NCBI GenBank assembly: GCA_016934595.1
Contig: JAFGSM010000188.1
Span: forward strand, 1 to 32,162
Length of the DNA: 32,162 nt
Direction: 5' to 3'
Source of the DNA: a bacterium
GTDB lineage: Bacteria > SZUA-182 > DTGQ01 > JAFGSM01
In this document: piece by piece, positions 4,125 to 32,162 of the stretch
Position numbering within the stretch: position 1 is the first letter of the stretch
Layout: each line of letters begins with the position of its first letter
Translations under genes and position numbers: made by a program
The notes under the pieces: generated by a model
The model's input: only the letters and a program-made list of their open reading frames with translations
What the model was told of the DNA's origin: nothing
The model's database searches: none

Positions 4125-4287
4125 TTTTTGCATCAGTTGTCATATAATAGACTTTATGATATTTGAAGTGAGATAAAAATAGTTTTATAATTAATTGATA
4201 TTATTGACAATATTTTTTTGTCTTATATTTATACTGTGTCAAAGCATATTATTTATACTGTAAAAAATTTATACGAGGACATCAATT

Positions 4288-9270: not shown

Positions 9271-9819
9271 ATGAGTTTTAGAATCAAGTCCATATTAATG
9301 TCGGTTTTGATTTTATCTTTTTTTACAGCATTTGTCCCGATATTTACCGGAATAGCAGGCTCAGCCGAGTTAAAGATCGGTTATATCAACAGTCAGAGAA
9401 TCCTTGAGGAGTCAAAGGCAGGCAGGGATGCGACCAAGTCTCTTGAAAATCTCGAGAAGGAGAAAACCGGCCAGGTGGAGCAAAAGAAAAAGGAGATCGA
9501 TGACCTGGAGAACGAGCTGAGAAAAAAGGAATTTGCCATTACCCCTGAGCGGAAAAAGGAGATAGAGGACAATATCAGGCACAAAAGCCTGGAGTTGAAA
9601 TTTTTCGGAGAGGTAAAGGATAAAGAGATCAAGGATCTATATATTAAAAGCCTCAAGAAGGTGGAAAGCCAGGTTATGGAGATTGTCCTGCAGATCGGTC
9701 AGCAAGAAGGTTATGACCTTGTGCTCGGACGGGATGAGAGCGGGATATTGTTCGCCAATCCGAAACACGACCTGACCGAAAAGGTCATACAGATTTATGA
9801 CCAAAAGATGCAGCAATAA
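9271..9819 (+). CDS. skp: Periplasmic chaperone Skp/OmpH
   Basis: 182 aa. Signal peptide then a highly charged coiled-coil-rich sequence. Strong RBS aggagg upstream. Located between bamA and lpxD. Confidence 0.85.
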   Translation: MSFRIKSILMSVLILSFFTAFVPIFTGIAGSAELKIGYINSQRILEESKAGRDATKSLENLEKEKTGQVEQKKKEIDDLENELRKKEFAITPERKKEIEDNIRHKSLELKFFGEVKDKEIKDLYIKSLKKVESQVMEIVLQIGQQEGYDLVLGRDESGILFANPKHDLTEKVIQIYDQKMQQ

Positions 9820-10876
9820 ATCAGAGTTTACGCTTAAGGATCTTGCAGACAGGATCGGCGGCAGGGTCATCGGCGATGAAAAGATAAGCATAAGGGGTGT
9901 TGCCGGTCTGAATGAGGCATGCCCAGGAGAAATCGCCTTTTTTGCCAATCAAAGATACAGGCCATTGCTGGCCAGTACCCGTGCATCAGCCCTTATTGCC
10001 TCTGAAGAGGAACCTTTTTTTAAAGGGCCTGTCATTCAGGTCTGCGATCCATACCTTGCGTTCGCCAAGGTATTGGAGATATTCTATCCCTGTTTAGAGC
10101 CAGCGACAGGGATCCATCCGGATGCAGTTATACATCCGGATGCAGTGATAGCGGAGGATGCAAGCATACAGGCAGGGGCTTTCATAGGAAGGGGGGTGCG
10201 TGTCGGCAGCAAGGTGCATATAATGTCGTGCTCGGTTGTGGGAGAGGATTCAGTGATCGGGGATTGTTCCCTGCTTTATCCAAATGTCACGCTATACCCT
10301 GAAACAGAATTAGGTGAGCGGGTTATTATCCACGCAGGTTCTGTCATAGGCAGCGACGGATTTGGTTATGCAAGACAGAACGGTATGCCCTACAAGATTC
10401 CCCAAGTAGGAAGGGTTGTGATTGAGGATGATTGCGAGATCGGGGCAAACGTATGTATAGACAGAGGTACACTGGGCGATACAAGGATCGGCAAAGGGAC
10501 AAAGATCGATAATCTCGTCCAGATCGCCCATAATGTTGTATTAGGGCCTTATTCTGTCATTGTATCCCAGACAGGAATATCCGGCAGCACCCAGGTAGGA
10601 AGCGGTGTAATACTTGCAGGCCAGACAGGTGTCGCAGGTCATATAAAGATCGGTGATGGTGTTGTTGCCGCTGCAAGGTCGGGTATTACAAAAGACATCC
10701 CGCAGGGGCAAACGATCGCAGGCTTTATGGCGATGCCTGCAAATGAATGGAGAAAATCAGAGGCGGTCTACAGGAACCTGCCTGAGATGCAAAAAAGATA
10801 CAGGGAACTCCTGAAAAGGGTAGAGTCACTGGAGGCTGTTCTTCAAGCCGGAGGCCATGCCAAGGGCGGCAGTTAG
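9797..10876 (+). CDS. lpxD: UDP-3-O-acylglucosamine N-acyltransferase LpxD (left-handed beta-helix)
   Basis: 359 aa. N-terminal LpxD-specific domain (FTLKDLADRIGGRVIGD), hexapeptide repeats (IHPDAVIHPDAVIAEDASI...) and a C-terminal helical tail. Overlaps the skp end by 23 nt. Confidence 0.9.
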   Translation: MTKRCSNKSEFTLKDLADRIGGRVIGDEKISIRGVAGLNEACPGEIAFFANQRYRPLLASTRASALIASEEEPFFKGPVIQVCDPYLAFAKVLEIFYPCLEPATGIHPDAVIHPDAVIAEDASIQAGAFIGRGVRVGSKVHIMSCSVVGEDSVIGDCSLLYPNVTLYPETELGERVIIHAGSVIGSDGFGYARQNGMPYKIPQVGRVVIEDDCEIGANVCIDRGTLGDTRIGKGTKIDNLVQIAHNVVLGPYSVIVSQTGISGSTQVGSGVILAGQTGVAGHIKIGDGVVAAARSGITKDIPQGQTIAGFMAMPANEWRKSEAVYRNLPEMQKRYRELLKRVESLEAVLQAGGHAKGGS

Positions 10877-10906
10877 TGCCTGGAAAAAGATCGAAATGGA
10901 ATTTAA

Positions 10907-10967
10907 GGTGATTTCGGTGTTGGTTGAAAATCCGCAAACATTGCATTGTATCTGTCCTTTGTTTTTA
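10907..10967 (-). repeat. Duplicated 3' fragment (about 60 bp) of the small radical SAM gene, also present at 12854-12917
   Basis: Minus-strand translation gives GQIQCNVCGFSTNTEIT, identical to residues near the C-terminus of the 302-aa radical SAM protein, with one synonymous nt change. Homology stops on both sides. Confidence 0.7.
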
Positions 10968-11120
10968 CTTGCTTTATATGAAAATGATCGAACAATGCTT
11001 TGTTTTTATTCATTTTCATGCTTCGTTGTGACTGTAAGGTCATGGGGGTTACTTAGCAATTTAATTATTTGAGTGTAACCAAAATAGAACATTGTTGCTT
11101 GTTCCAATTTTCCGGACATA

Positions 11121-11155
11121 CTGGATTCCGGCTTTCGACGGAATGACAAATAAGA
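11121..11155. repeat. Border repeat copy A: ctggattccg-N10-gaatgacaaataag
   Basis: Shares ctggattccg and gaatgacaaa(a)ta with 16765-16799. Contains a small inverted repeat attccg...cggaat. Lies just 3' of the AAA ATPase gene. Confidence 0.5.
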
Positions 11156-11178
11156 AATAGCACCATTTTGGTTACAAT

Positions 11179-12477
11179 CTAATTATTTTTGGTGGATTCA
11201 GTTTCTGATTTTTTTCTTGTCAGAAGCCATTTCCACAAAGGCACAAACTTTATATTCCTGCCATTTGAATCCTCAATTGAATCATAATCCCATGTAATTA
11301 CCGATAAGTCGTCACAATTTAGCTCTTCGCTTGCATCTATCAAAGATCTTATTTCCCTCTTTTTCACTGCCATCTCTTCTATTTGATAACAGACCTGTAT
11401 GAGATTTTTGACAGTCAATCCATCCCTTATAATAAAATCAACCTCTTTGTTGTTTTTGGTTTTATAATAAAAGACATCTTTATTTGGTTTATATCCATCT
11501 CTCAAAATCTCAAGGAAGACAAGATTTTCCATCAACCTCCCTGTATTTTGTGAGAACTGAAAGGATTTTGCCAGGATAAGGCCATTGTCCACAATATAGA
11601 TTTTCTTTGGGGACTTGATTTGCTCGCCAATTTTAAAAGAGAACCTGTTTAGTGAGAAGAATAGATAGGCATCTTCAAGATATCCCAAATAACTCTGAAC
11701 CGTGCCGGTGCTATTGAATTCAAGGGTATTTCTAATCTTTGTAGAACTAAACTCAGAACAAAAATTGCTTATCATGTACAATGCCAGATCATACATCTTT
11801 TGAGGAAATCTCACCCTGTATCTCTTAACAATATCTTTAAATAAAATGGCGTCAAAAAGTGTTTCCAGATATGTTCTGGTGTCAAGATCATTCATAACAA
11901 TCTCAGGAAACCCGCCATTCTTCAAAAAGCAGTCTAAGTGATTTAGAATCTTTCCTTTCATTTCAGGGATAATATCTTGATCTTTCTCCATCCTGACATT
12001 TTTGCTTCCGAGGAATTCACTGAAACTAAAAGGCAGAATCTCAATCGGCACATATCTTCCTGTTAATGCGGTTGCCAATTCTTTACTTAAGAGCCCTGCA
12101 TTTGATCCGGTCAAAACTAGATTATATCCTCTCCTTTGAAGCTTATTGACAAATAATTCCCAATTTTCTAAATTCTGTATCTCATCAAAAAAGATGAGAT
12201 CATGTTCTGGATAAACCTCGAAAATACCTTTAACAATATCATCAGTTGAAGCCTTTATAAGATTCTCATCGTCAAGGTTTAAATAGGCAAAGTTGCTTTT
12301 GTTTAATAGAAGAAAAGAAAATACGGATTTTCCAGCCCTCCTCGGACCGGTAATCACCTTTATCAGGGACGAATCCAAGAAATGCCTTGCAAAATCAAGC
12401 TTTTCGCGTAAAAGATAATTGCGTGAAAGTAGCTTTTCTTTCTCCTTCTTGTGTTGGATTATAAGCTCTTTTATCAT
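11179..12477 (-). CDS. AAA+ ATPase, DUF4143/COG1373 family (predicted ATPase)
   Basis: 432 aa with Walker A GPRRAGKS and Walker B-like DEIQ, matching the AAA_14 plus DUF4143 C-terminal architecture. The gene looks noticeably AT-richer than its neighbours (estimated by eye, not computed). Confidence 0.8.
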   Translation of the reverse strand: MIKELIIQHKKEKEKLLSRNYLLREKLDFARHFLDSSLIKVITGPRRAGKSVFSFLLLNKSNFAYLNLDDENLIKASTDDIVKGIFEVYPEHDLIFFDEIQNLENWELFVNKLQRRGYNLVLTGSNAGLLSKELATALTGRYVPIEILPFSFSEFLGSKNVRMEKDQDIIPEMKGKILNHLDCFLKNGGFPEIVMNDLDTRTYLETLFDAILFKDIVKRYRVRFPQKMYDLALYMISNFCSEFSSTKIRNTLEFNSTGTVQSYLGYLEDAYLFFSLNRFSFKIGEQIKSPKKIYIVDNGLILAKSFQFSQNTGRLMENLVFLEILRDGYKPNKDVFYYKTKNNKEVDFIIRDGLTVKNLIQVCYQIEEMAVKKREIRSLIDASEELNCDDLSVITWDYDSIEDSNGRNIKFVPLWKWLLTRKKSETESTKNN

Positions 12478-12575
12478 ATCTTAATCATATACTGGATATA
12501 ATTTTATATTTTTGTTCAATACAGTAACAATACCATATAAAATCATTATGTCAAATTCATGTTTTGATTTATTTT

Positions 12576-12698
12576 TGATGGCCTCGTAAAAAGTCTAAAA
12601 CGCCCCTAAAAATACGTTTAATATAATAAATTTGATATATATTTTGGCGATGTAATTGTTTTTCCTCAGCATCAAAATTACTTTTTACGAGGCCATCA
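12576..12698. mobile_element. MITE-like small repeat element, family A, full copy with 19-bp perfect terminal inverted repeats (tgatggcctcgtaaaaagt)
   Basis: Left TIR at 12576-12594; right TIR actttttacgaggccatca at 12680-12698. The internal about 85 bp recurs at about 85% identity at 32076-32162. A solo TIR-like copy is at 16918-16935. Confidence 0.6.
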
Positions 12699-12784
12699 TT
12701 TTTAACCCCTGAAACATGGGGCGTATTTTCTCTGTGCGCTCTGTGGTCTCCGTGGTGAATTATTACAGTATAAGGAGAATACAG

Positions 12785-13693
12785 CTACCCTGTGCAATAC
12801 CTGAATACGCGTCTTCCTACATTGATCGATTCCATCTCAAGCTCATAGGCAAGGGTGATTTCGGTGTTGGTTGAAAAGCCGCAAACATTGCATTGTATCT
12901 GTCCCCTGTTTTTTACGTAGCAGCCTGTGGTTATAGTGCCGTCCGGTTCAATGCTTGCGATCATCCAATCCTTGCACCTCTTGGTCCAATCATTGGACTT
13001 CAGGGCATCAAGCGCCTTGAAGGAGTTAGTCAGCGGCCATCCCTCCCTCTTCATCCTTATCAGTTCATCCAGCACCCGAACCCTTTTATCGGATGACAGC
13101 ATCAAAGGGTCTGCCTTTTCATAAGGATAGAAAAACTGTATGGTCACGCCCTTGACCTTCCCCTTCAGGAATCTTACCATGTCAGGTATTTCATTCCAGT
13201 TAAGCATGTTTATGGTAGTGTTTACGTAAAGGTTGGGGTGATTGCTTGCCTCAATTTTTTGGATTACCTGATCAAATATATCCCTGCCTCTTATGTGGTT
13301 ATGTGTCTCTTTTAGCCCATCCAAACTTACCCACAGGCTGTTTGAGTCAATATCCAGGGATATTGTCCCGTTTGTTGTGACGCCAACGCTGAAGAAGTAT
13401 TTTTTCGCTTCATTGACCACGTCATTGAGGCCGTATTGCCCATTCCTCCATAAAAACGGCTCACCCCCTTCTATAAGCAGTATCCTGATCCCCATATCAT
13501 ACAGTTTTTTCAAAACTGCCTGGATCTGTTTGAAATCCATTTGAGGAAGGTTTTCATGCCAGAAAGGGCAATGCCTGCATTTCAGGTTGCATTTATGTGT
13601 GATCTTGAACCCTGCAAGAAGCGGGGTCTTTTTGCCGAGCCACCGTGTCTTAAAGTAGTATCTTAAGAAATAGAAAAACCAGCCACTTTCCAT
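12785..13693 (-). CDS. Radical SAM enzyme (SPASM/twitch-clade) with a C-terminal auxiliary Cys cluster
   Basis: 302 aa. CNLKCRHC gives the CxxxCxxC motif, IEGGEPFL is a glycine-rich SAM motif, and the C-terminus reads C-x18-C-x9-C-x2-C (twitch-like). RBS ggggaaagaag upstream. Confidence 0.85.
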   Translation of the reverse strand: MESGWFFYFLRYYFKTRWLGKKTPLLAGFKITHKCNLKCRHCPFWHENLPQMDFKQIQAVLKKLYDMGIRILLIEGGEPFLWRNGQYGLNDVVNEAKKYFFSVGVTTNGTISLDIDSNSLWVSLDGLKETHNHIRGRDIFDQVIQKIEASNHPNLYVNTTINMLNWNEIPDMVRFLKGKVKGVTIQFFYPYEKADPLMLSSDKRVRVLDELIRMKREGWPLTNSFKALDALKSNDWTKRCKDWMIASIEPDGTITTGCYVKNRGQIQCNVCGFSTNTEITLAYELEMESINVGRRVFRYCTG

Positions 13694-13768
13694 CTGAAAA
13701 TCCCTTCTTGGTATCTTCTTTCCCCTTTGAGAATAAAATATTCATGGGTGTTTCACCTGATTATCCAC

Positions 13769-15721
13769 TTATGACAGATCAGTGATCTGCCTGTAAACCT
13801 CTTCCGCTTCAAGGAGGAAGCAGGGGTTTAAACCGTATAAACGGAAAAGCCAGCATCCGCCTCTGCACTCAGAAAGATGCGGGCATCTTAGGCAGCCTTC
13901 CTGCAAATCTTCGGGTATGTCCTTGCGAAATGATGCAAATCCATCCGTCCAGATATGTTGCATCGAATCCTTTCTGCAGTCACCTTCCTCTGTCTTCCTG
14001 GATGTTTTCACAGGGCATCCCTGCACTATGCCATTCGAGTTAATGCAAAAGGTGTTCCAACCACAGCCGCAAAAGAACGGGGCAGGGCGAAGGAATGGCT
14101 CAAGGGCTCCGAGATATCCGAATAGCTCCCCTGCCTCAACGGCAAATCCCCGCCTTCTGGCCTCCAAAATAAACCTGAAGGAATCCTTGACCGTCTCATG
14201 CTGATTGCGCAAGGGCTGGCCGTTGTCAAAGATACGGGGCTGGATCTGCAAGAGATTTGCCCCTGCCCGAAAAGCATCTTCGGTCAGTTTTGGAAATTCC
14301 CTGAGGTTTTCATCAAGGAGTATTGAGGACACGCAAATCCTTGGCGCGCCTATATCATGGAAGAATTCTATGGCCCTGATCCCCCGCTCATAAGAATCCT
14401 TGGAGTCCCTTATCCTGTTTTGCGTTTCACCATAACCATCCAGTGTTATGACCACAGAGTCAAACTTTGCATCGGACAGGGCTGCCACGTTTTCCTCAAC
14501 GGCATAGCCGTTTGTGGTAAGGCCCACCCTTATCCCTTTTTCTTTAGCATAGCGGGCTATTTCAAAAAGGTCTTTGCGAAGCAGAGGCTCTCCGCCGGTT
14601 AAAGATAGAAATCCGCAGCCCATATCAGCCAGATCATCGATGACCTTTTTTGCCTCTGATGTCTCAAGTTCCTGTGGGGTAGGATGCCCAGCCACTATCT
14701 CACAGTGGCCGCATTTAAACTGGCATTTATCTGTTATCACCCACTGCACATATTGGGGGCTGAGTTTGCCCTCCTGTAAATCCTGCTTGTATTTATTGAT
14801 AAAACCCTCTGAAGGAAGAACCTCCGCCTGAGGTCTTGGGTATTGATCTTTAGTGGTAAATGCCTCAGTGGCTTTTTTTGCCTCTTCGTGCGTTATTTTT
14901 GCCTCTTCATGCCCTATCTCTTTTGATTTTGCGGTTTCCGATTTTTCCTGTGTTTTGATCATCCTTTTTATATTATCGAGAAAAGGCGTCAAAAGGTCTA
15001 AAGGAAACGGGAAAAGGATGGTCGATCCCTTGTTTGTGGATATATCACGAAGGGTCTGGAGATACCTGAGCTGCAGGCCATGCGGATTGCTTGAGAGTAT
15101 CTCGCCTGCCTCTGCAAGGGTCCGGGATGCCTGATATTCGCCCTGGGCGTCTATAAGCCTTGCCCTTCGCTCACGCTCCGTCTCGGCCTGTTTGGCCATG
15201 GCCCTTTTCATCTCCTCAGGCAGTGTGACCTCCTTGATCTCCACCATAGTGATATTGATGCCCCACTGACTTATGTGCACGGATATGATCTCCTGCAGGT
15301 GTTTATTTATCTTTGCCTGCTGGCTCAGGAGTTCATCCAGTTCCACCTGACCCAGCACACTCCTCAATGTGGCCTGGGCAAGCAGGAAGGTGGATTGATA
15401 GATGTCCTGTATATTGATAATGGCCATTGCCGGATCAGAGACATGAAAATAAACGACTGCGTCCACCGTGACAGGGACATTATCCCTCGTCATTATATCC
15501 TGACGGGGCACATCTATGGACACCAGGCGCAGATCCACCCTCTGTATACGGTCTATCAGCGGTATTAGAATGACCAGCCCCGGGCCTTTTGTGGATAGAA
15601 ATTTCCCCAGGCGGAATACGACGGCTCGTTCATATTCTTTGAGTATCTTAAAGGCCGATCCAATGACGGCTATAGAGCCTAATATCAGCAATAATATTTT
15701 TATATATACAAGATTCATCAT
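13769..15721 (-). CDS. Fusion protein: N-terminal TM helix plus stomatin/SPFH (band-7) domain, linker, then C-terminal radical SAM with a full SPASM domain
   Basis: 650 aa. Residues about 1-250 are a classic stomatin-like SPFH domain (EYERAVVFRLGK..., ...EMKRAMAKQAETERERRA...). Residues about 320-650 carry CQFKCGHC (CxxxCxxC), LTGGEPLL and a 7-Cys SPASM (CGCGWNTFC...C..C...CLRCPHLSEC.GGC). Strong RBS agggagga upstream. Confidence 0.85.
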   Translation of the reverse strand: MMNLVYIKILLLILGSIAVIGSAFKILKEYERAVVFRLGKFLSTKGPGLVILIPLIDRIQRVDLRLVSIDVPRQDIMTRDNVPVTVDAVVYFHVSDPAMAIINIQDIYQSTFLLAQATLRSVLGQVELDELLSQQAKINKHLQEIISVHISQWGINITMVEIKEVTLPEEMKRAMAKQAETERERRARLIDAQGEYQASRTLAEAGEILSSNPHGLQLRYLQTLRDISTNKGSTILFPFPLDLLTPFLDNIKRMIKTQEKSETAKSKEIGHEEAKITHEEAKKATEAFTTKDQYPRPQAEVLPSEGFINKYKQDLQEGKLSPQYVQWVITDKCQFKCGHCEIVAGHPTPQELETSEAKKVIDDLADMGCGFLSLTGGEPLLRKDLFEIARYAKEKGIRVGLTTNGYAVEENVAALSDAKFDSVVITLDGYGETQNRIRDSKDSYERGIRAIEFFHDIGAPRICVSSILLDENLREFPKLTEDAFRAGANLLQIQPRIFDNGQPLRNQHETVKDSFRFILEARRRGFAVEAGELFGYLGALEPFLRPAPFFCGCGWNTFCINSNGIVQGCPVKTSRKTEEGDCRKDSMQHIWTDGFASFRKDIPEDLQEGCLRCPHLSECRGGCWLFRLYGLNPCFLLEAEEVYRQITDLS

Positions 15722-15761
15722 TTTTTATTTTCCTCCCTATGATTTATATAAAATCTTTATA

Positions 15762-16784
15762 TCAGAGTTTGCCTCCCAATCCAATAAGGTTCATAACAAA
15801 CCATAAAAGCCCCATGATTGAAAATATGGAAAAGATCACAGACAAAAGGCCGTATATGGAAAGCCAATGAAACCGTTTTTTGCGCAGGTATTCCTTCCCT
15901 TTTTGCCTCATGTTCACTGTGCGTGAGAAGTCTGATAGAAGCCAGTATCCGTCTCCGTTGACCAGCGGATTCATAATAATGCTCCACCTTGTGTATTGCA
16001 GGATGAGAAGCGGGGTTACATAGTATTCAGCCGCAGGGTAATAGATTGCAAGGGCAACGAGCAATGAATTAAGGCCCATGTCCATAAGGATGCCCGCTGA
16101 GTTTATTAGCAGGCGGATATTTCTTGGAAGGCACCAGGCTGCGTGCGTGTCCATATATACGGCAGGGAAAAACCAAAGGAATGTGAAACCAAGTCGCGGG
16201 GCAAAATACTTCCTTGCGCTGAGATAGTGTCCCAATTCATGCAGGATGATCGGGATGATGGAAATAAGCCCGACTATCAATGCATCATACCATCTTCCAA
16301 GACGGAATGTGCGCGCAATATTTTGAAAATACTCAATTTGTATAGCAGCCAGCAGAAAAAACAGGAGGACGAAAGGGGCGATGTGTATATCGTCCTGTTG
16401 ACCCGACTTGGTGATTTTGCCCTCCCTTGGAGAGACAATGGCTCCCTCGCGGCGGAGATTTGCGATCAATCCGTTGAGTTCCTTTTGATCGATCTTGTAT
16501 TTTGTGCATAACGGGACAACAGGCATTCCAGCGTTCAGTTCCATTAGAAGGCGTAATGTGAGCCAATCCACATGGAACAGCCCCTTCGAAGGTGTGCGGA
16601 TCCATATTGTGCCGTCATCCAGGAAGCCGTACTCGAACCGGAGGGATTGATTATAGCTTTTTCTCTCAGGTTCAGTGTAGGCAGGATGTGGTGACGGACT
16701 GCCTGAAATTTTCTGCTGCAAAAATGGCATATTCAAGATTTTCTTATTTTCCTTATTTAAAGCGCTGGATTCCGTGTCAGGCAC
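15762..16784 (-). CDS. Membrane zinc metalloprotease, M50 (site-2 protease) family, with an N-terminal cytoplasmic PqqD/RRE-like domain
   Basis: HELGH in a TM helix and NPLVNGDG in a later TM helix match the M50 HExxH plus LDG motifs. N-terminal segment HVDWLTLRLLMELNAGMPVVPLCTKYKIDQKELNGLIANLRREGAIV resembles PqqD-like peptide-binding domains (inference). The start may be the internal Met (MPFLQQ...) rather than the GTG at 16784. Confidence 0.7.
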   Translation of the reverse strand: MPDTESSALNKENKKILNMPFLQQKISGSPSPHPAYTEPERKSYNQSLRFEYGFLDDGTIWIRTPSKGLFHVDWLTLRLLMELNAGMPVVPLCTKYKIDQKELNGLIANLRREGAIVSPREGKITKSGQQDDIHIAPFVLLFFLLAAIQIEYFQNIARTFRLGRWYDALIVGLISIIPIILHELGHYLSARKYFAPRLGFTFLWFFPAVYMDTHAAWCLPRNIRLLINSAGILMDMGLNSLLVALAIYYPAAEYYVTPLLILQYTRWSIIMNPLVNGDGYWLLSDFSRTVNMRQKGKEYLRKKRFHWLSIYGLLSVIFSIFSIMGLLWFVMNLIGLGGKL

Positions 16785-16799
16785 TGAATGACAAAATAG
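16765..16799. repeat. Border repeat copy B: ctggattccg-N11-gaatgacaaaatag
   Basis: Matches 11121-11155. Overlaps the annotated GTG start of the M50 gene. Confidence 0.5.
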
Positions 16800-16917
16800 G
16801 GTGAAACCGGCTTTTTACAAATCCATCAATTCTCAAAGTTTTTATTTCTGTTGACCGATATAAAAGTTAGAACAGTTTAACTTGTAAATTATCAATTGTC
16901 CATAGACGGCTGATTTT

Positions 16918-16935
16918 GATGGACTCGTAAAAGGT
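16918..16935. repeat. Solo TIR-like copy of the MITE family A terminus (tgatggactcgtaaaagg)
   Basis: 16/18 identical to the family A TIR tgatggcctcgtaaaaag. No matching right end nearby. Confidence 0.4.
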
Positions 16936-17019
16936 TTTTACCGGCTTTTTAAATTGCGTCAGGATTGATAAATACTTTTAAAATTGTGGTCGCGAGATCA
17001 CGTGGATTGGGAAGAAACT

Positions 17020-17793
17020 ATGACACACCCTTCAGACAACATATTCGAGCTTTTGACCCATCACCTGTCTGACAACGTGCTGGTAAAGATCAATATATTT
17101 GGGCTGGACATGAGCATCACAAAATACGTGGTCTTCATGTGGATCATATCCGGCGGGATTTTTCTATCTCTCTATATCCTGGCAAGAAAATACAGGGGGC
17201 GGGGCATAAGCGCCCCTGACCGCACCATGACCCTGATCGAGACCTTTGTAGGATTTGTAAGGGATGACATTGTGAGCCCTTTTATAGGGCATGAAAGGGA
17301 GAGGGCTTACCTTCATTTCTTCTGCACCCAGTTTTTATTCATCCTTGCCTGCAACCTGGTCGGCCTTATTCCGAAATCGGTCACAGTCACATCGAACCTT
17401 GCGGTCACAATGGGGCTTGCCCTGGTGACCTTTTTTTTCACGCAGGTCTATGGCATGGTGAGCCGGGGGCCTATTTCCTACTGGAAACACCTGGTCCCCG
17501 ATGGCGTGCCGGTTTTGCTCGCCCCGATAATAGCCCTCAATGAATTCATAAGCCTGTTCAGCAAGCCTTTTGCCCTCATGATCAGGCTTTTTGCAAACAT
17601 GCTTGCGGGGCATATCGTCATATTTGTCATCCTGTATCTGGTCATCATGTTCAGAAACCTGTTTCTGGGGGTCTTTACCGTACCTATCGCTGTGGCGGTT
17701 AGCCTCCTTGAGATATTCATCTGTGTTTTACAGGCATATATATTCACTTTCCTCTCAGCTATATTTGTGGGCATGGCAGGAGAGGCACATTAA
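17020..17793 (+). CDS. atpB: F-type ATP synthase Fo subunit a
   Basis: Multi-TM protein with the conserved C-terminal region ...LFANMLAGH.... Start chosen at ATG 17020 (MTHPSD) after RBS gggaag; the ORF track begins at a TTG at 16984. Confidence 0.9.
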   Translation: MTHPSDNIFELLTHHLSDNVLVKINIFGLDMSITKYVVFMWIISGGIFLSLYILARKYRGRGISAPDRTMTLIETFVGFVRDDIVSPFIGHERERAYLHFFCTQFLFILACNLVGLIPKSVTVTSNLAVTMGLALVTFFFTQVYGMVSRGPISYWKHLVPDGVPVLLAPIIALNEFISLFSKPFALMIRLFANMLAGHIVIFVILYLVIMFRNLFLGVFTVPIAVAVSLLEIFICVLQAYIFTFLSAIFVGMAGEAH

Positions 17794-32075: not shown

Positions 32076-32162
32076 TGATGGCATCGTAAAAAGTCTAAAA
32101 TGTCCTTAAAAATAAGTTTGATATTATAAATTTGATGTCTATTTTGGCGATATAATCCTGGT
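32076..32162. mobile_element. MITE-like small repeat element, family A, copy truncated by the window end
   Basis: Left TIR tgatggcatcgtaaaaagt plus about 70 bp of internal sequence, about 85% identical to 12576-12660. Confidence 0.5.

Follow-up and report, generated by a model that had tools for sequence, protein, structure and literature searches.

Genes in the lpxD-atpB interval

The interval between lpxD and atpB was analysed on contig JAFGSM010000188.1 of a bacterial metagenome-assembled genome (MAG; assembly GCA_016934595.1). The stretch studied, positions 1 to 32,162 of the contig, is referred to below, over its full length, as the window. The interval carries four open reading frames (ORFs), all co-directional on the minus strand:

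11179 to 12477, minus strand: AAA_14/DUF4143 ATPase, candidate anti-phage defence protein PDC-S01 (432 aa; Pfam, PADLOC)
12785 to 13693, minus strand: stand-alone radical S-adenosylmethionine (SAM) enzyme with C-terminal DUF3463, PTO1314-like (302 aa; Pfam)
13769 to 15721, minus strand: stomatin (SPFH)-radical SAM/SPASM fusion (650 aa; Pfam, NCBIfam)
15762 to 16784, minus strand: intramembrane metalloprotease of the S2P/M50 type with a predicted RiPP recognition element (RRE) fused to it (maximal ORF 340 aa; likely start at 16736, giving 324 aa)

The interval is flanked by lpxD (9797-10876; NCBIfam, 413 bits) and by atpB, of which the start ATG is at 17020 (ATP-synt_A, 187 bits). Housekeeping genes extend on both sides, lysS, lolCD-like genes, clp, bamA, skp and lpxD on one and atpBEFHAGD and glnS on the other. 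Both the four minus-strand genes and the character of the flanks had been recognized in a preliminary description of this DNA, made from its letters and ORFs. The gaps between the ORFs are, in order, 307 nt, 75 nt and 40 nt, so that the short gaps of 40-75 nt noted there apply to two of the three. The GC content is about 0.35 across the ATPase gene and 0.45-0.48 across the other three genes.

The preliminary description took the four genes as one cassette, forming an operon. This part did not hold, since the ATPase gene appears to be a low-GC independent insertion and the DUF3463 gene lies outside the conserved core: three distinct units make up the interval, which is not one operon. Probably, it consists of the membrane half of a system of the type making peptides that are ribosomally synthesized and then modified post-translationally (RiPPs), an unrelated radical SAM neighbour and an inserted candidate defence ATPase, the missing half of the RiPP-type system being located elsewhere in the genome. 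The four-gene set is shared by none of the relatives compared. The insertion between lpxD and atpB that had been proposed is right for one side, as the lpxD-side neighbourhood was found in this genome alone among the relatives compared; adjacency of the protease and fusion genes to the atp operon is kept in the three closest relatives, and in these only, all others having unrelated contexts.

The membrane protease and the stomatin-radical SAM fusion

The protease gene product is called by NCBI from position 16736 (P0121, 324 aa; locus tag JXL19_09770). Its earlier identification as an RRE-M50 protease was borne out by sequence motifs and a structural model, not by profiles. Peptidase_M50 (PF02163) gave 16.7 bits (E 0.0049), below the gathering cutoff of 27.2, PqqD gave no match to this protein in the Pfam and NCBIfam profile searches, and the NCBIfam matches to daptide_HExxH (51 bits) and YydH/LiaK (48 bits) were both under cutoff. 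In an alignment of 37 homologues, the HExxH residues H166, E167 and H170 are invariant, as are N256, P257, D262 and G263 of the S2P motif NxxPxxxxDG. An AlphaFold2 model computed from this alignment (pLDDT 86.4, pTM 0.80) has three strands followed by three helices at residues 34-96, the winged helix-turn-helix fold of an RRE, and a polytopic helical core thereafter. This core has the S2P fold, the model being matched by SpoIVFB (6.6), RseP (6.2 and 5.8) and MjS2P (5.6). As modelled, the N-terminus of the protease is thus an RRE domain on an S2P/M50 body.

The fusion protein was recovered as previously described, with Band_7 (129.3 bits), Radical_SAM (96.2 bits) and SPASM (24.3 bits, cutoff 21.5) all above the Pfam gathering score. 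An N-terminal transmembrane helix is followed by Band_7 (aa 26-195), a low-complexity linker (about aa 250-315), the radical SAM core (aa 328-482) with CQFKCGHC (CX3CX2C) at aa 333-340, and a seven-cysteine SPASM domain at aa 551-634 (C559, C569, C610, C613, C619, C623 and C634). The CQFKCGHC motif and all seven SPASM cysteines are invariant across 17 full-length homologues. The SPFH part, a Band_7 domain with N-terminal membrane anchor and C-terminal coiled-coil region, aligns over residues 13-245 with residues 19-253 of human stomatin (PDB 9wmj; 220 bits), and also with QmcA (127 bits) and PH stomatin; the stomatin and QmcA structures matched in this way are cages of 16 and 26 subunits, respectively. 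The rest of the fusion is predicted to be cytoplasmic, because the charge flanking the single transmembrane helix is more positive on its C-terminal side and a radical SAM enzyme requires the cytoplasm. The linker varies among homologues from very short to about 250 residues and is rich in proline and glutamine in some (P0017, 884 aa); in the window it contains a 21-nt tandem duplication (14875-14916) encoding (I/K)(G/T)HEEAK twice.

None of the four window proteins exceeded a curated NCBIfam cutoff. For the fusion, the best family was MftC (TIGR03962; 138.2 of 265 bits); further scores were those for TIGR04103 (121.5 of 725), PqqE (82.5 of 381) and GeoRSP (TIGR04303; 82 of 400). By the last score this is not GeoRSP, to which a distant relationship had been suggested earlier. 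Among the domains for which profile searches had been recommended, Band_7, Radical_SAM, SPASM and DUF4143 were found above gathering score; Peptidase_M50 and PqqD, as noted, were not.

The fusion is rare, with one full-length 50%-identity representative in a library of 1.84 billion representative proteins and about 19 full-length homologues in total, all from unclassified "MAG: bacterium" assemblies. A pattern scan of genome contigs, using patterns inside the SPFH domain, gave mostly ordinary stomatins (78 of 80 loci); the two useful loci were L002 and L003. The window copy shows 59-64% identity to the outgroup clade, the same as its sister sequences, and nine private changes at 208 otherwise invariant columns (family range 0-14). 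For the window protease and fusion genes dN/dS is about 0.05, and both look functional. Decay of the window fusion gene was considered and rejected, as there is no excess of substitutions and all catalytic residues are kept.

The complete cluster in related genomes

In six relatives (L002, L082, L083, L084/L085, L086 and L003) the order protease, fusion, overlapping second radical SAM gene and precursor gene or genes is kept. The second enzyme, here called rSAM-B (the fused one being rSAM-A), is a radical SAM/SPASM protein of about 368 aa, of which the gene overlaps the fusion gene. It matches TIGR04103 (nif11-class maturase 3) with 273.7 bits (E 2e-81) and TIGR03913 with 258.5 bits, both sub-cutoff, and its similarity to the nif11-maturase-3 family is twice that to any cross-linking family.

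All six fusion-bearing relatives encode dedicated precursors, one to three genes each, of 99-213 aa and without known domain. The N-terminus is invariant (M-x-H-I-F-F-E-x-L-E-x-R-x-x-T-Q-x-L, the shared leader being also written as MxHIFFExLExRQSTQ or, with the Q before S left free, MxHIFFExLExRxSTQ; a leader peptide of the system is MSHIFFEKLEKRQSTQSL) and is followed by variable sequence rich in Gly, Trp, Tyr and Pro. These small proteins are taken as RiPP precursors because of this leader-plus-core layout. The cores contain four to nine copies of the motif hydrophobic-Tyr-Gly-(Val/Ile/Pro), such as RLLYGVFP, QPLYGVS, AYYGV, PMYGIEP and KYGPGP. Tyr-Gly is strongly enriched, with six observed against 0.5 expected in L086 and nine against 0.8 in the more distant locus L087, where nine of nine tyrosines stand within x-Y-G. 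The RiPP-like grammar that had been read from the window therefore holds for the protease and the fusion, which relatives pair with rSAM-B and with leader-plus-repeat precursors: these two genes are the conserved core of a rare uncharacterised RiPP-type system.

Precursors of the fused clade (P0173, P0174, L002 13787-14389, L084 14387-15004 and L086 12948-13586) also carry W-(T/S/N/K)-N-P-(F/I) motifs and FGGLFGG runs, and most of them end in a C-terminal tyrosine (GIPY, GTIY, WPY). Neither the W-x-N-P nor the FGG features were seen in the two complete precursors of the unfused clade. The W-x-N-P, FGG and C-terminal tyrosine features may mark the substrate of the stomatin-linked radical SAM enzyme.

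At L003 the protease gene is cut down to its RRE domain (9388-10011, a 207-aa ORF) and the HExxH part is gone. An S8 subtilisin-like protease is encoded at the same locus just downstream of the precursor (14184-15941); it may be a replacement leader peptidase, with the RRE kept.

Probable division of the cluster in the window genome

Comparison of the window with L002 by blastn gave one interrupted collinear alignment, which reaches L002 position 11907 (window 13782) and resumes at L002 position 14974 (window 13693). The L002 block in between (11908-14973, 3,066 bp) encodes rSAM-B and two precursors. The window has instead:

13694 to 13781, no strand: rearrangement scar of 88 bp in place of the 3.07-kb block of L002 (blastn synteny breaks at 13782 and 13693)

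The junction of the fusion and DUF3463 genes that results was confirmed in an independent assembly (L001).

No precursor was found in the window when all ORFs of at least 20 aa were inspected, when the relatives' precursors were used in tblastn, or when a six-frame leader pattern was run over the 32 kb; a precursor hidden in the window was rejected by these searches. The preliminary remark that no precursor is visible is thus correct for the window, but the lack is not intrinsic to the system, as the 3.07-kb block was lost here and its homologues are found on another contig. A precursor profile search identified JXL19_07360 and JXL19_07355 (each annotated "hypothetical protein"), which carry the locus-tag prefix of the window's MAG and belong to a different contig. 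The two precursors of this MAG (P0173 and P0174) contain four and seven Tyr-Gly motifs, so that the x-Tyr-Gly precursors are present there and not in the window.

The relocated locus was read from two Logan contigs, 2.2 and 2.4 kb in length, from sequencing run SRR13394437, which also yielded the window sequence. One of them (L092) carries rSAM-B and precursor A, the other (L093) precursor B. Directly upstream of rSAM-B on L092, a short ORF ends with "...CREIIDAPLYTQTP*", the C-terminus of the fusion in relatives (...VYREITNAALYTQTP), and this relic is about 14 codons long. The window fusion ends early, at "...VYRQITDLS*", and the break points of the window and of L092 overlap within about 25 nt. 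These complementary break points, with the relic mirroring the window truncation, indicate that the cluster was severed at the fusion gene's 3' end, its second half now probably lying elsewhere in the genome. The window itself holds half of the system only.

Distant relatives with an unfused SPFH gene

Five contexts of distant protease homologues (38-51% identity) were compared, with the following genes near the protease gene and the following leaders:

L087 (Elusimicrobiota): separate Band_7 gene, rSAM-B, unfused rSAM-A orthologue, precursor and RND/TolC efflux genes; leader MDKKKLFLEDLEQRKSTSSF
L090: rSAM-B, protease, Band_7; leader MKKKLLIEDLEKRRSTSSLF
L094: protease, Band_7, rSAM-B; leader ...LFVGILERRKSTSSL
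L095: rSAM-B, ATP-grasp enzyme, protease, Band_7
L088 (Planctomycetota): ATP-grasp enzyme, no Band_7; leader MSTDKRLFIEELEHRKSTTAL, then TTxAxGEEGR repeats typical of ATP-grasp substrates

The unfused orthologue of the fusion's radical SAM part in L087 shows 44% identity to it (312 bits). A separate Band_7 gene is adjacent to the protease gene, or at most three genes away, in four of the five contexts, each of which also has an rSAM-B gene. Since the SPFH gene, though unfused, still stands by the protease gene in distant relatives, the gene arrangement argues that the SPFH-protease link is functional and not an accident of fusion.

A leader of the type hydrophobic-x-E-x-L-E-x-R-K/R-S-T accompanies the protease family in L087, L090, L094 (in a looser form) and L088. 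In the Planctomycetota MAG (JBFWOT010000004), L088 6132-7022 and 7063-8969 encode the leader LFIEELEHRKSTTAL and an RRE-S2P homologue together with an ATP-grasp enzyme, and the 296-aa precursor is built of TT(M/L)A(V/L)GEEGR repeats. The leader-protease platform thus appears to be common to radical SAM and graspetide-like chemistries. Neither radical SAM enzyme of the system offers space for an RRE, L003 retains the RRE after loss of the catalytic domain, and the leader co-occurs with the protease; from these observations we infer that it is the membrane-anchored RRE that, through putative binding, presents the leader to the machinery as a whole.

L087 (4211-5122), L094 (9846-10766) and L095 (4280-5191) share, after rSAM-B, a conserved protein of 303-306 aa (207-261 bits pairwise). 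Its N-terminal segment is hydrophobic and signal-like, about seven "...Y.Y.G.PH.W..IA" repeats are present, and the fused clade lacks the protein.

The DUF3463 radical SAM gene and the AAA_14 ATPase gene

The stand-alone radical SAM protein matches Radical_SAM (52.6 bits) and DUF3463 (33.9 bits, cutoff 31.3), and PTO1314 (TIGR03961) with 131 bits, below the cutoff of 306. It had been described as a second enzyme of the SPASM/twitch clade, but it carries DUF3463 and has no Pfam SPASM domain. An orthologue is located downstream of the cluster in L002 and L083 only; no copy of it adjoins the cluster in the examined stretches of L082, L084, L086, L003, L087, L090, L094 and L095. In L002 the two are separated by a 585-nt spacer that contains a terminator-like hairpin, GGCGGTGAGTGAAAACTCACCGCC, followed by a T-run. 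The gene is a lineage-specific bystander, which the deletion moved to 75 nt from the fusion gene. Assignment of the radical SAM genes to a known defence system was also rejected, the similarity to pVip being limited to the generic radical SAM core (55-65 bits).

The AAA+ ATPase gene was identified as before, with AAA_14 (115 bits) and DUF4143 (88.6 bits) above gathering score. Its product also matches the PADLOC profile PDLC04787 (PDC-S01), for which, as for PADLOC profiles in general, there is no curated cutoff, with E 4.6e-110 and 366 bits over profile positions 7-409 of 412. None of the related loci compared has the gene. The 307-nt gap upstream of it holds a promoter-like site, promoter scans being overall at chance level. 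Direct repeats of 60 nt (10907-10966 and 12854-12913, spacing 1947 nt) bracket the ATPase segment, one of them being the following feature:

10907 to 10966, no strand: 60-nt duplicate of the 3' coding end of the DUF3463 radical SAM gene, 95% identical to 12854-12913

This copy also matches the DUF3463 radical SAM orthologue of L083. A direct repeat of 60 nt is unusually long for a target-site duplication. The low GC content, the direct repeats, the absence from relatives and the PDC-S01 match point to an independent single-gene insertion, predicted to function in phage defence. The direct repeat, the synteny breaks and the relocated half agree with the horizontal mosaicism that had been proposed for this region. 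For annotation, the lesson is that what is read as one "cassette" from a single window can combine part of a dismembered cluster with a bystander gene and an inserted defence gene.

Predicted mode of maturation and alternative explanations

Based on the gene content, a mode of maturation can be proposed. The RRE of the membrane protease, the sole RRE in the system, would bind the leader. By analogy with HflK/C-FtsH and stomatin-NfeD, the stomatin part would build a ring at the membrane, on its cytoplasmic side; this ring would tether many copies of rSAM-A via flexible linkers and corral the protease. Modification of the x-Tyr-Gly sites would be carried out by rSAM-B, most likely as a spliceotide-like excision of tyramine leaving alpha-keto-beta-amino acids; the tethered rSAM-A would add a second modification, possibly at the conserved C-terminal tyrosine, and the S2P protease would remove the leader last.

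Radical SAM spliceases excise tyramine at XYG motifs (PMC11414181, PMC9811515), and type I spliceases require an RRE-like Y protein (PMC11414181). Precursor motifs such as RLLYGVFP resemble the published validated splice tags PIRPLYGLPI and AVAAGYGVVFPG (PMC10533398). Given this likeness and the similarity of rSAM-B to TIGR04103, tyramine splicing by rSAM-B is our best single guess. For rSAM-A, MftC is known to decarboxylate a C-terminal tyrosine, acting on C-terminal Val-Tyr (PMC10114670); an MftC-like action on the C-terminal tyrosine is a lead only, suggested by MftC being the best NCBIfam family and by the terminal tyrosine of most fused-clade precursors. Taken as a whole, a new mode of membrane-organised maturation, in which a radical SAM maturase is held by a stomatin ring that also gates an RRE-S2P protease, the leader and the protease together serve as a platform for at least three maturase types (PlpX-like radical SAM, stomatin-linked radical SAM and ATP-grasp enzyme) and the products are multi-site spliced or otherwise Tyr-modified chains of about 200 residues, is put forward tentatively, as possible and somewhat short of an even chance.

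Several points weigh against this account of the window and of its chemistry. Promoter and terminator scans of the window were at chance level and carry no information on operon structure. Ring formation by the stomatin part, topology and the control of the protease are analogies and not observations. The TIGR04103 cutoff of 725 bits is far above the scores of both rSAM-B and the window fusion. That TIGR04103 contains PlpX is our assumption. The sole backing for it is that PlpX takes Nif11-like precursors as substrates, with the PqqD-like PlpY being needed (PMC5995677); TIGR04103 is unmentioned in the open-access literature searched. The precursor motif is x-Tyr-Ala in L090 and x-Tyr-Ser in L094, not x-Tyr-Gly. 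The precursor contig is assigned to the same genome by MAG binning and by the shared sequencing run. Finally, the window protease, fusion, DUF3463 radical SAM and atpB genes differ from those of L002 at synonymous saturation (pS 0.75-0.85), whereas rSAM-B of L092 (246-1352, compared with L002 11910-13016) has dS of about 0.8 and 94% amino acid identity. This mismatch may reflect recombination, horizontal transfer of the rSAM-B/precursor module, or a co-resident relative in a mixed bin.

The strongest competitor, which we regard as unlikely though far from negligible, is peptide modification without tyramine splicing, either as cyclophane or ether cross-links on the Trp/Tyr-rich cores or as MftC-like oxidative decarboxylation of the C-terminal tyrosine. 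The MftC match of the window radical SAM domain and the known action of that enzyme on C-terminal Val-Tyr (PMC10114670), the W-x-N-P motifs and terminal tyrosines (GIPY, GTIY, WPY) of the fused-clade precursors, and the x-Tyr-Ala and x-Tyr-Ser variants are all in its favour. On the other hand, the MftC score is far under the cutoff of 265 and MftA and MftB are absent (neither mftA nor mftB was found in the window or the related loci), the similarity of rSAM-B to the nif11-maturase-3 family is twice that to any family of cross-linking enzymes, and the repeated motif of Tyr, a small residue and Val/Ile/Pro is like known splice sites.

Set against the division of a functional cluster within one genome, a second alternative is that the window protease and fusion are a functionless remnant and that L092 and L093 come from a mis-binned co-resident relative. 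The divergence of the L092 rSAM-B from L002, far below that of the saturated window genes, and a contig link made through bin and run alone are what this explanation would account for. It is rather improbable, as both window genes are intact, with catalytic residues kept and no excess of private substitutions, and as L092 carries the relic of about 14 codons, where the complete fusion gene would be expected had the contig come from a relative with an intact cluster.

The view that all four genes form one operon for a precursor-less, self-contained protein-modification system, for instance one in which the AAA+ ATPase is a partner and the target is the SPFH protein itself or some other protein of the cell, draws on the co-directional genes, the two gaps of 40 and 75 nt, the lack of a precursor in the window and the repetitive fusion linker with its 21-nt duplication, and is hardly credible in the face of the ATPase gene (GC 0.35, 307-nt gap, 60-nt repeats, absent in every relative, full-length PDC-S01 match), the DUF3463 gene (absent in most relatives, and behind a terminator-like hairpin in L002) and the dedicated precursors of all six fusion-bearing relatives.

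Comparison with known systems

The survey of spliceases by Scott and coworkers reportedly covers 939 predicted systems. Like the spliceotide systems (PlpX/PcpX/RhaX with PlpY), the present one has a radical SAM/SPASM maturase, rSAM-B being closest to nif11-class maturase 3 in profile comparison, repeated x-Tyr-Gly followed by Val/Ile/Pro in the precursors and a need for a PqqD-like RRE component; known spliceases also act on multi-site proteins. It differs in that a membrane S2P protease, and not a small Y protein, carries the RRE, that a second radical SAM/SPASM enzyme is fused to stomatin, that the leader is a new one of 18 residues, neither Nif11 nor NHLP, and that the cores are of low complexity and 160-200 aa long. 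The scores are far under the family cutoff, and the window itself has neither a splicease-like enzyme nor a precursor.

Coupling of an SPFH gene to a membrane protease gene is shared with HflK/C-FtsH and with stomatin (PH1511)-NfeD/STOPP (PH1510), and the SPFH part of the fusion aligns over the cage-building transmembrane, SPFH and coiled-coil regions of stomatin. In contrast to these pairs, the protease here is an S2P/M50 type bearing a predicted RRE, not FtsH or NfeD, the stomatin has a C-terminal radical SAM domain, and the context is peptide maturation and not membrane protein quality control. The daptide protease and YydH/LiaK of epipeptides, the only NCBIfam families matched by the protease (E 1e-13), are likewise polytopic HExxH metalloproteases beside RiPP maturases, but the scores of 48-51 bits compare with cutoffs of 225-300, and the predicted N-terminal RRE and the obligatory SPFH adjacency are additional here. 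MftC, PqqE and GeoRSP belong to the same SPASM subfamily, with the seven-Cys auxiliary-cluster motif, and act on peptides through an RRE; the fusion reaches none of their cutoffs (138/265, 82.5/381 and 82/400 bits), and MftA/B, PqqA/D or GeoRSP partner genes are lacking. As for PDC-S01, the 432-aa ATPase matches the profile end to end (366 bits), but the name denotes a candidate system, a label free of mechanism and with no demonstrated relation to the neighbouring genes.

The system thus most resembles a RiPP pathway, being spliceotide-like in enzyme and motif, and HflK/C-FtsH- or stomatin-NfeD-like in its SPFH-protease pairing. The stomatin-tethered maturase, the RRE fused to an S2P protease and the leader with multi-site cores would be its new features. 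In the open-access literature searched, which does not include the splicease survey (Scott et al. 2022, Chem 8:2659), the words "spliceotide" and "stomatin" were not found together in any paper, and no paper was found that connects SPFH with peptide maturation by radical SAM enzymes. Together with the lack of any curated family above cutoff, this upholds the preliminary statement that the combination was not a recognized one.

HflK/C-FtsH aside, few functions of bacterial SPFH/stomatin proteins are settled. In several lineages, among them an Elusimicrobiota MAG and unclassified MAGs, the present stomatin is either joined covalently to an enzyme or kept next to one particular membrane protease, which offers a genetically defined client pair suited for testing whether stomatins scaffold and gate a protease; if the proposed mode is true, bacterial stomatins gain a defined enzymatic client. 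With regard to natural products, the system points to a precursor family in which each chain has many Tyr-Gly sites, to a leader of a new type and to a predicted RRE anchored in the membrane. If tyramine splicing is true, poly-ketoamide polypeptides would result, and this pharmacophore is known for protease inhibition.

Dispersed intergenic repeats

Repeat features had been noted in the region, and, besides the 60-nt direct repeat (95%), a dispersed intergenic 19-mer, TGATGGCCTCGTAAAAAGT, was found. It occurs five times in the window, against 0.01 expected. Two features of the interval contain it:

12576 to 12698, no strand: perfect 19-nt inverted repeat (12576-12594 and 12680-12698), arms 85 nt apart
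16737 to 17019, no strand: divergent intergenic region between the protease gene and atpB, with one copy of the 19-mer

Besides the pair in the inverted repeat, the copies are at 16917-16935 (the one in the divergent region), 32076-32094 and 4266-4284. The 19-mer is also present on L093 (2357-2382), beside the relocated precursor locus. It could be a REP- or MITE-like element or the site of a regulator, and may mediate the rearrangements.

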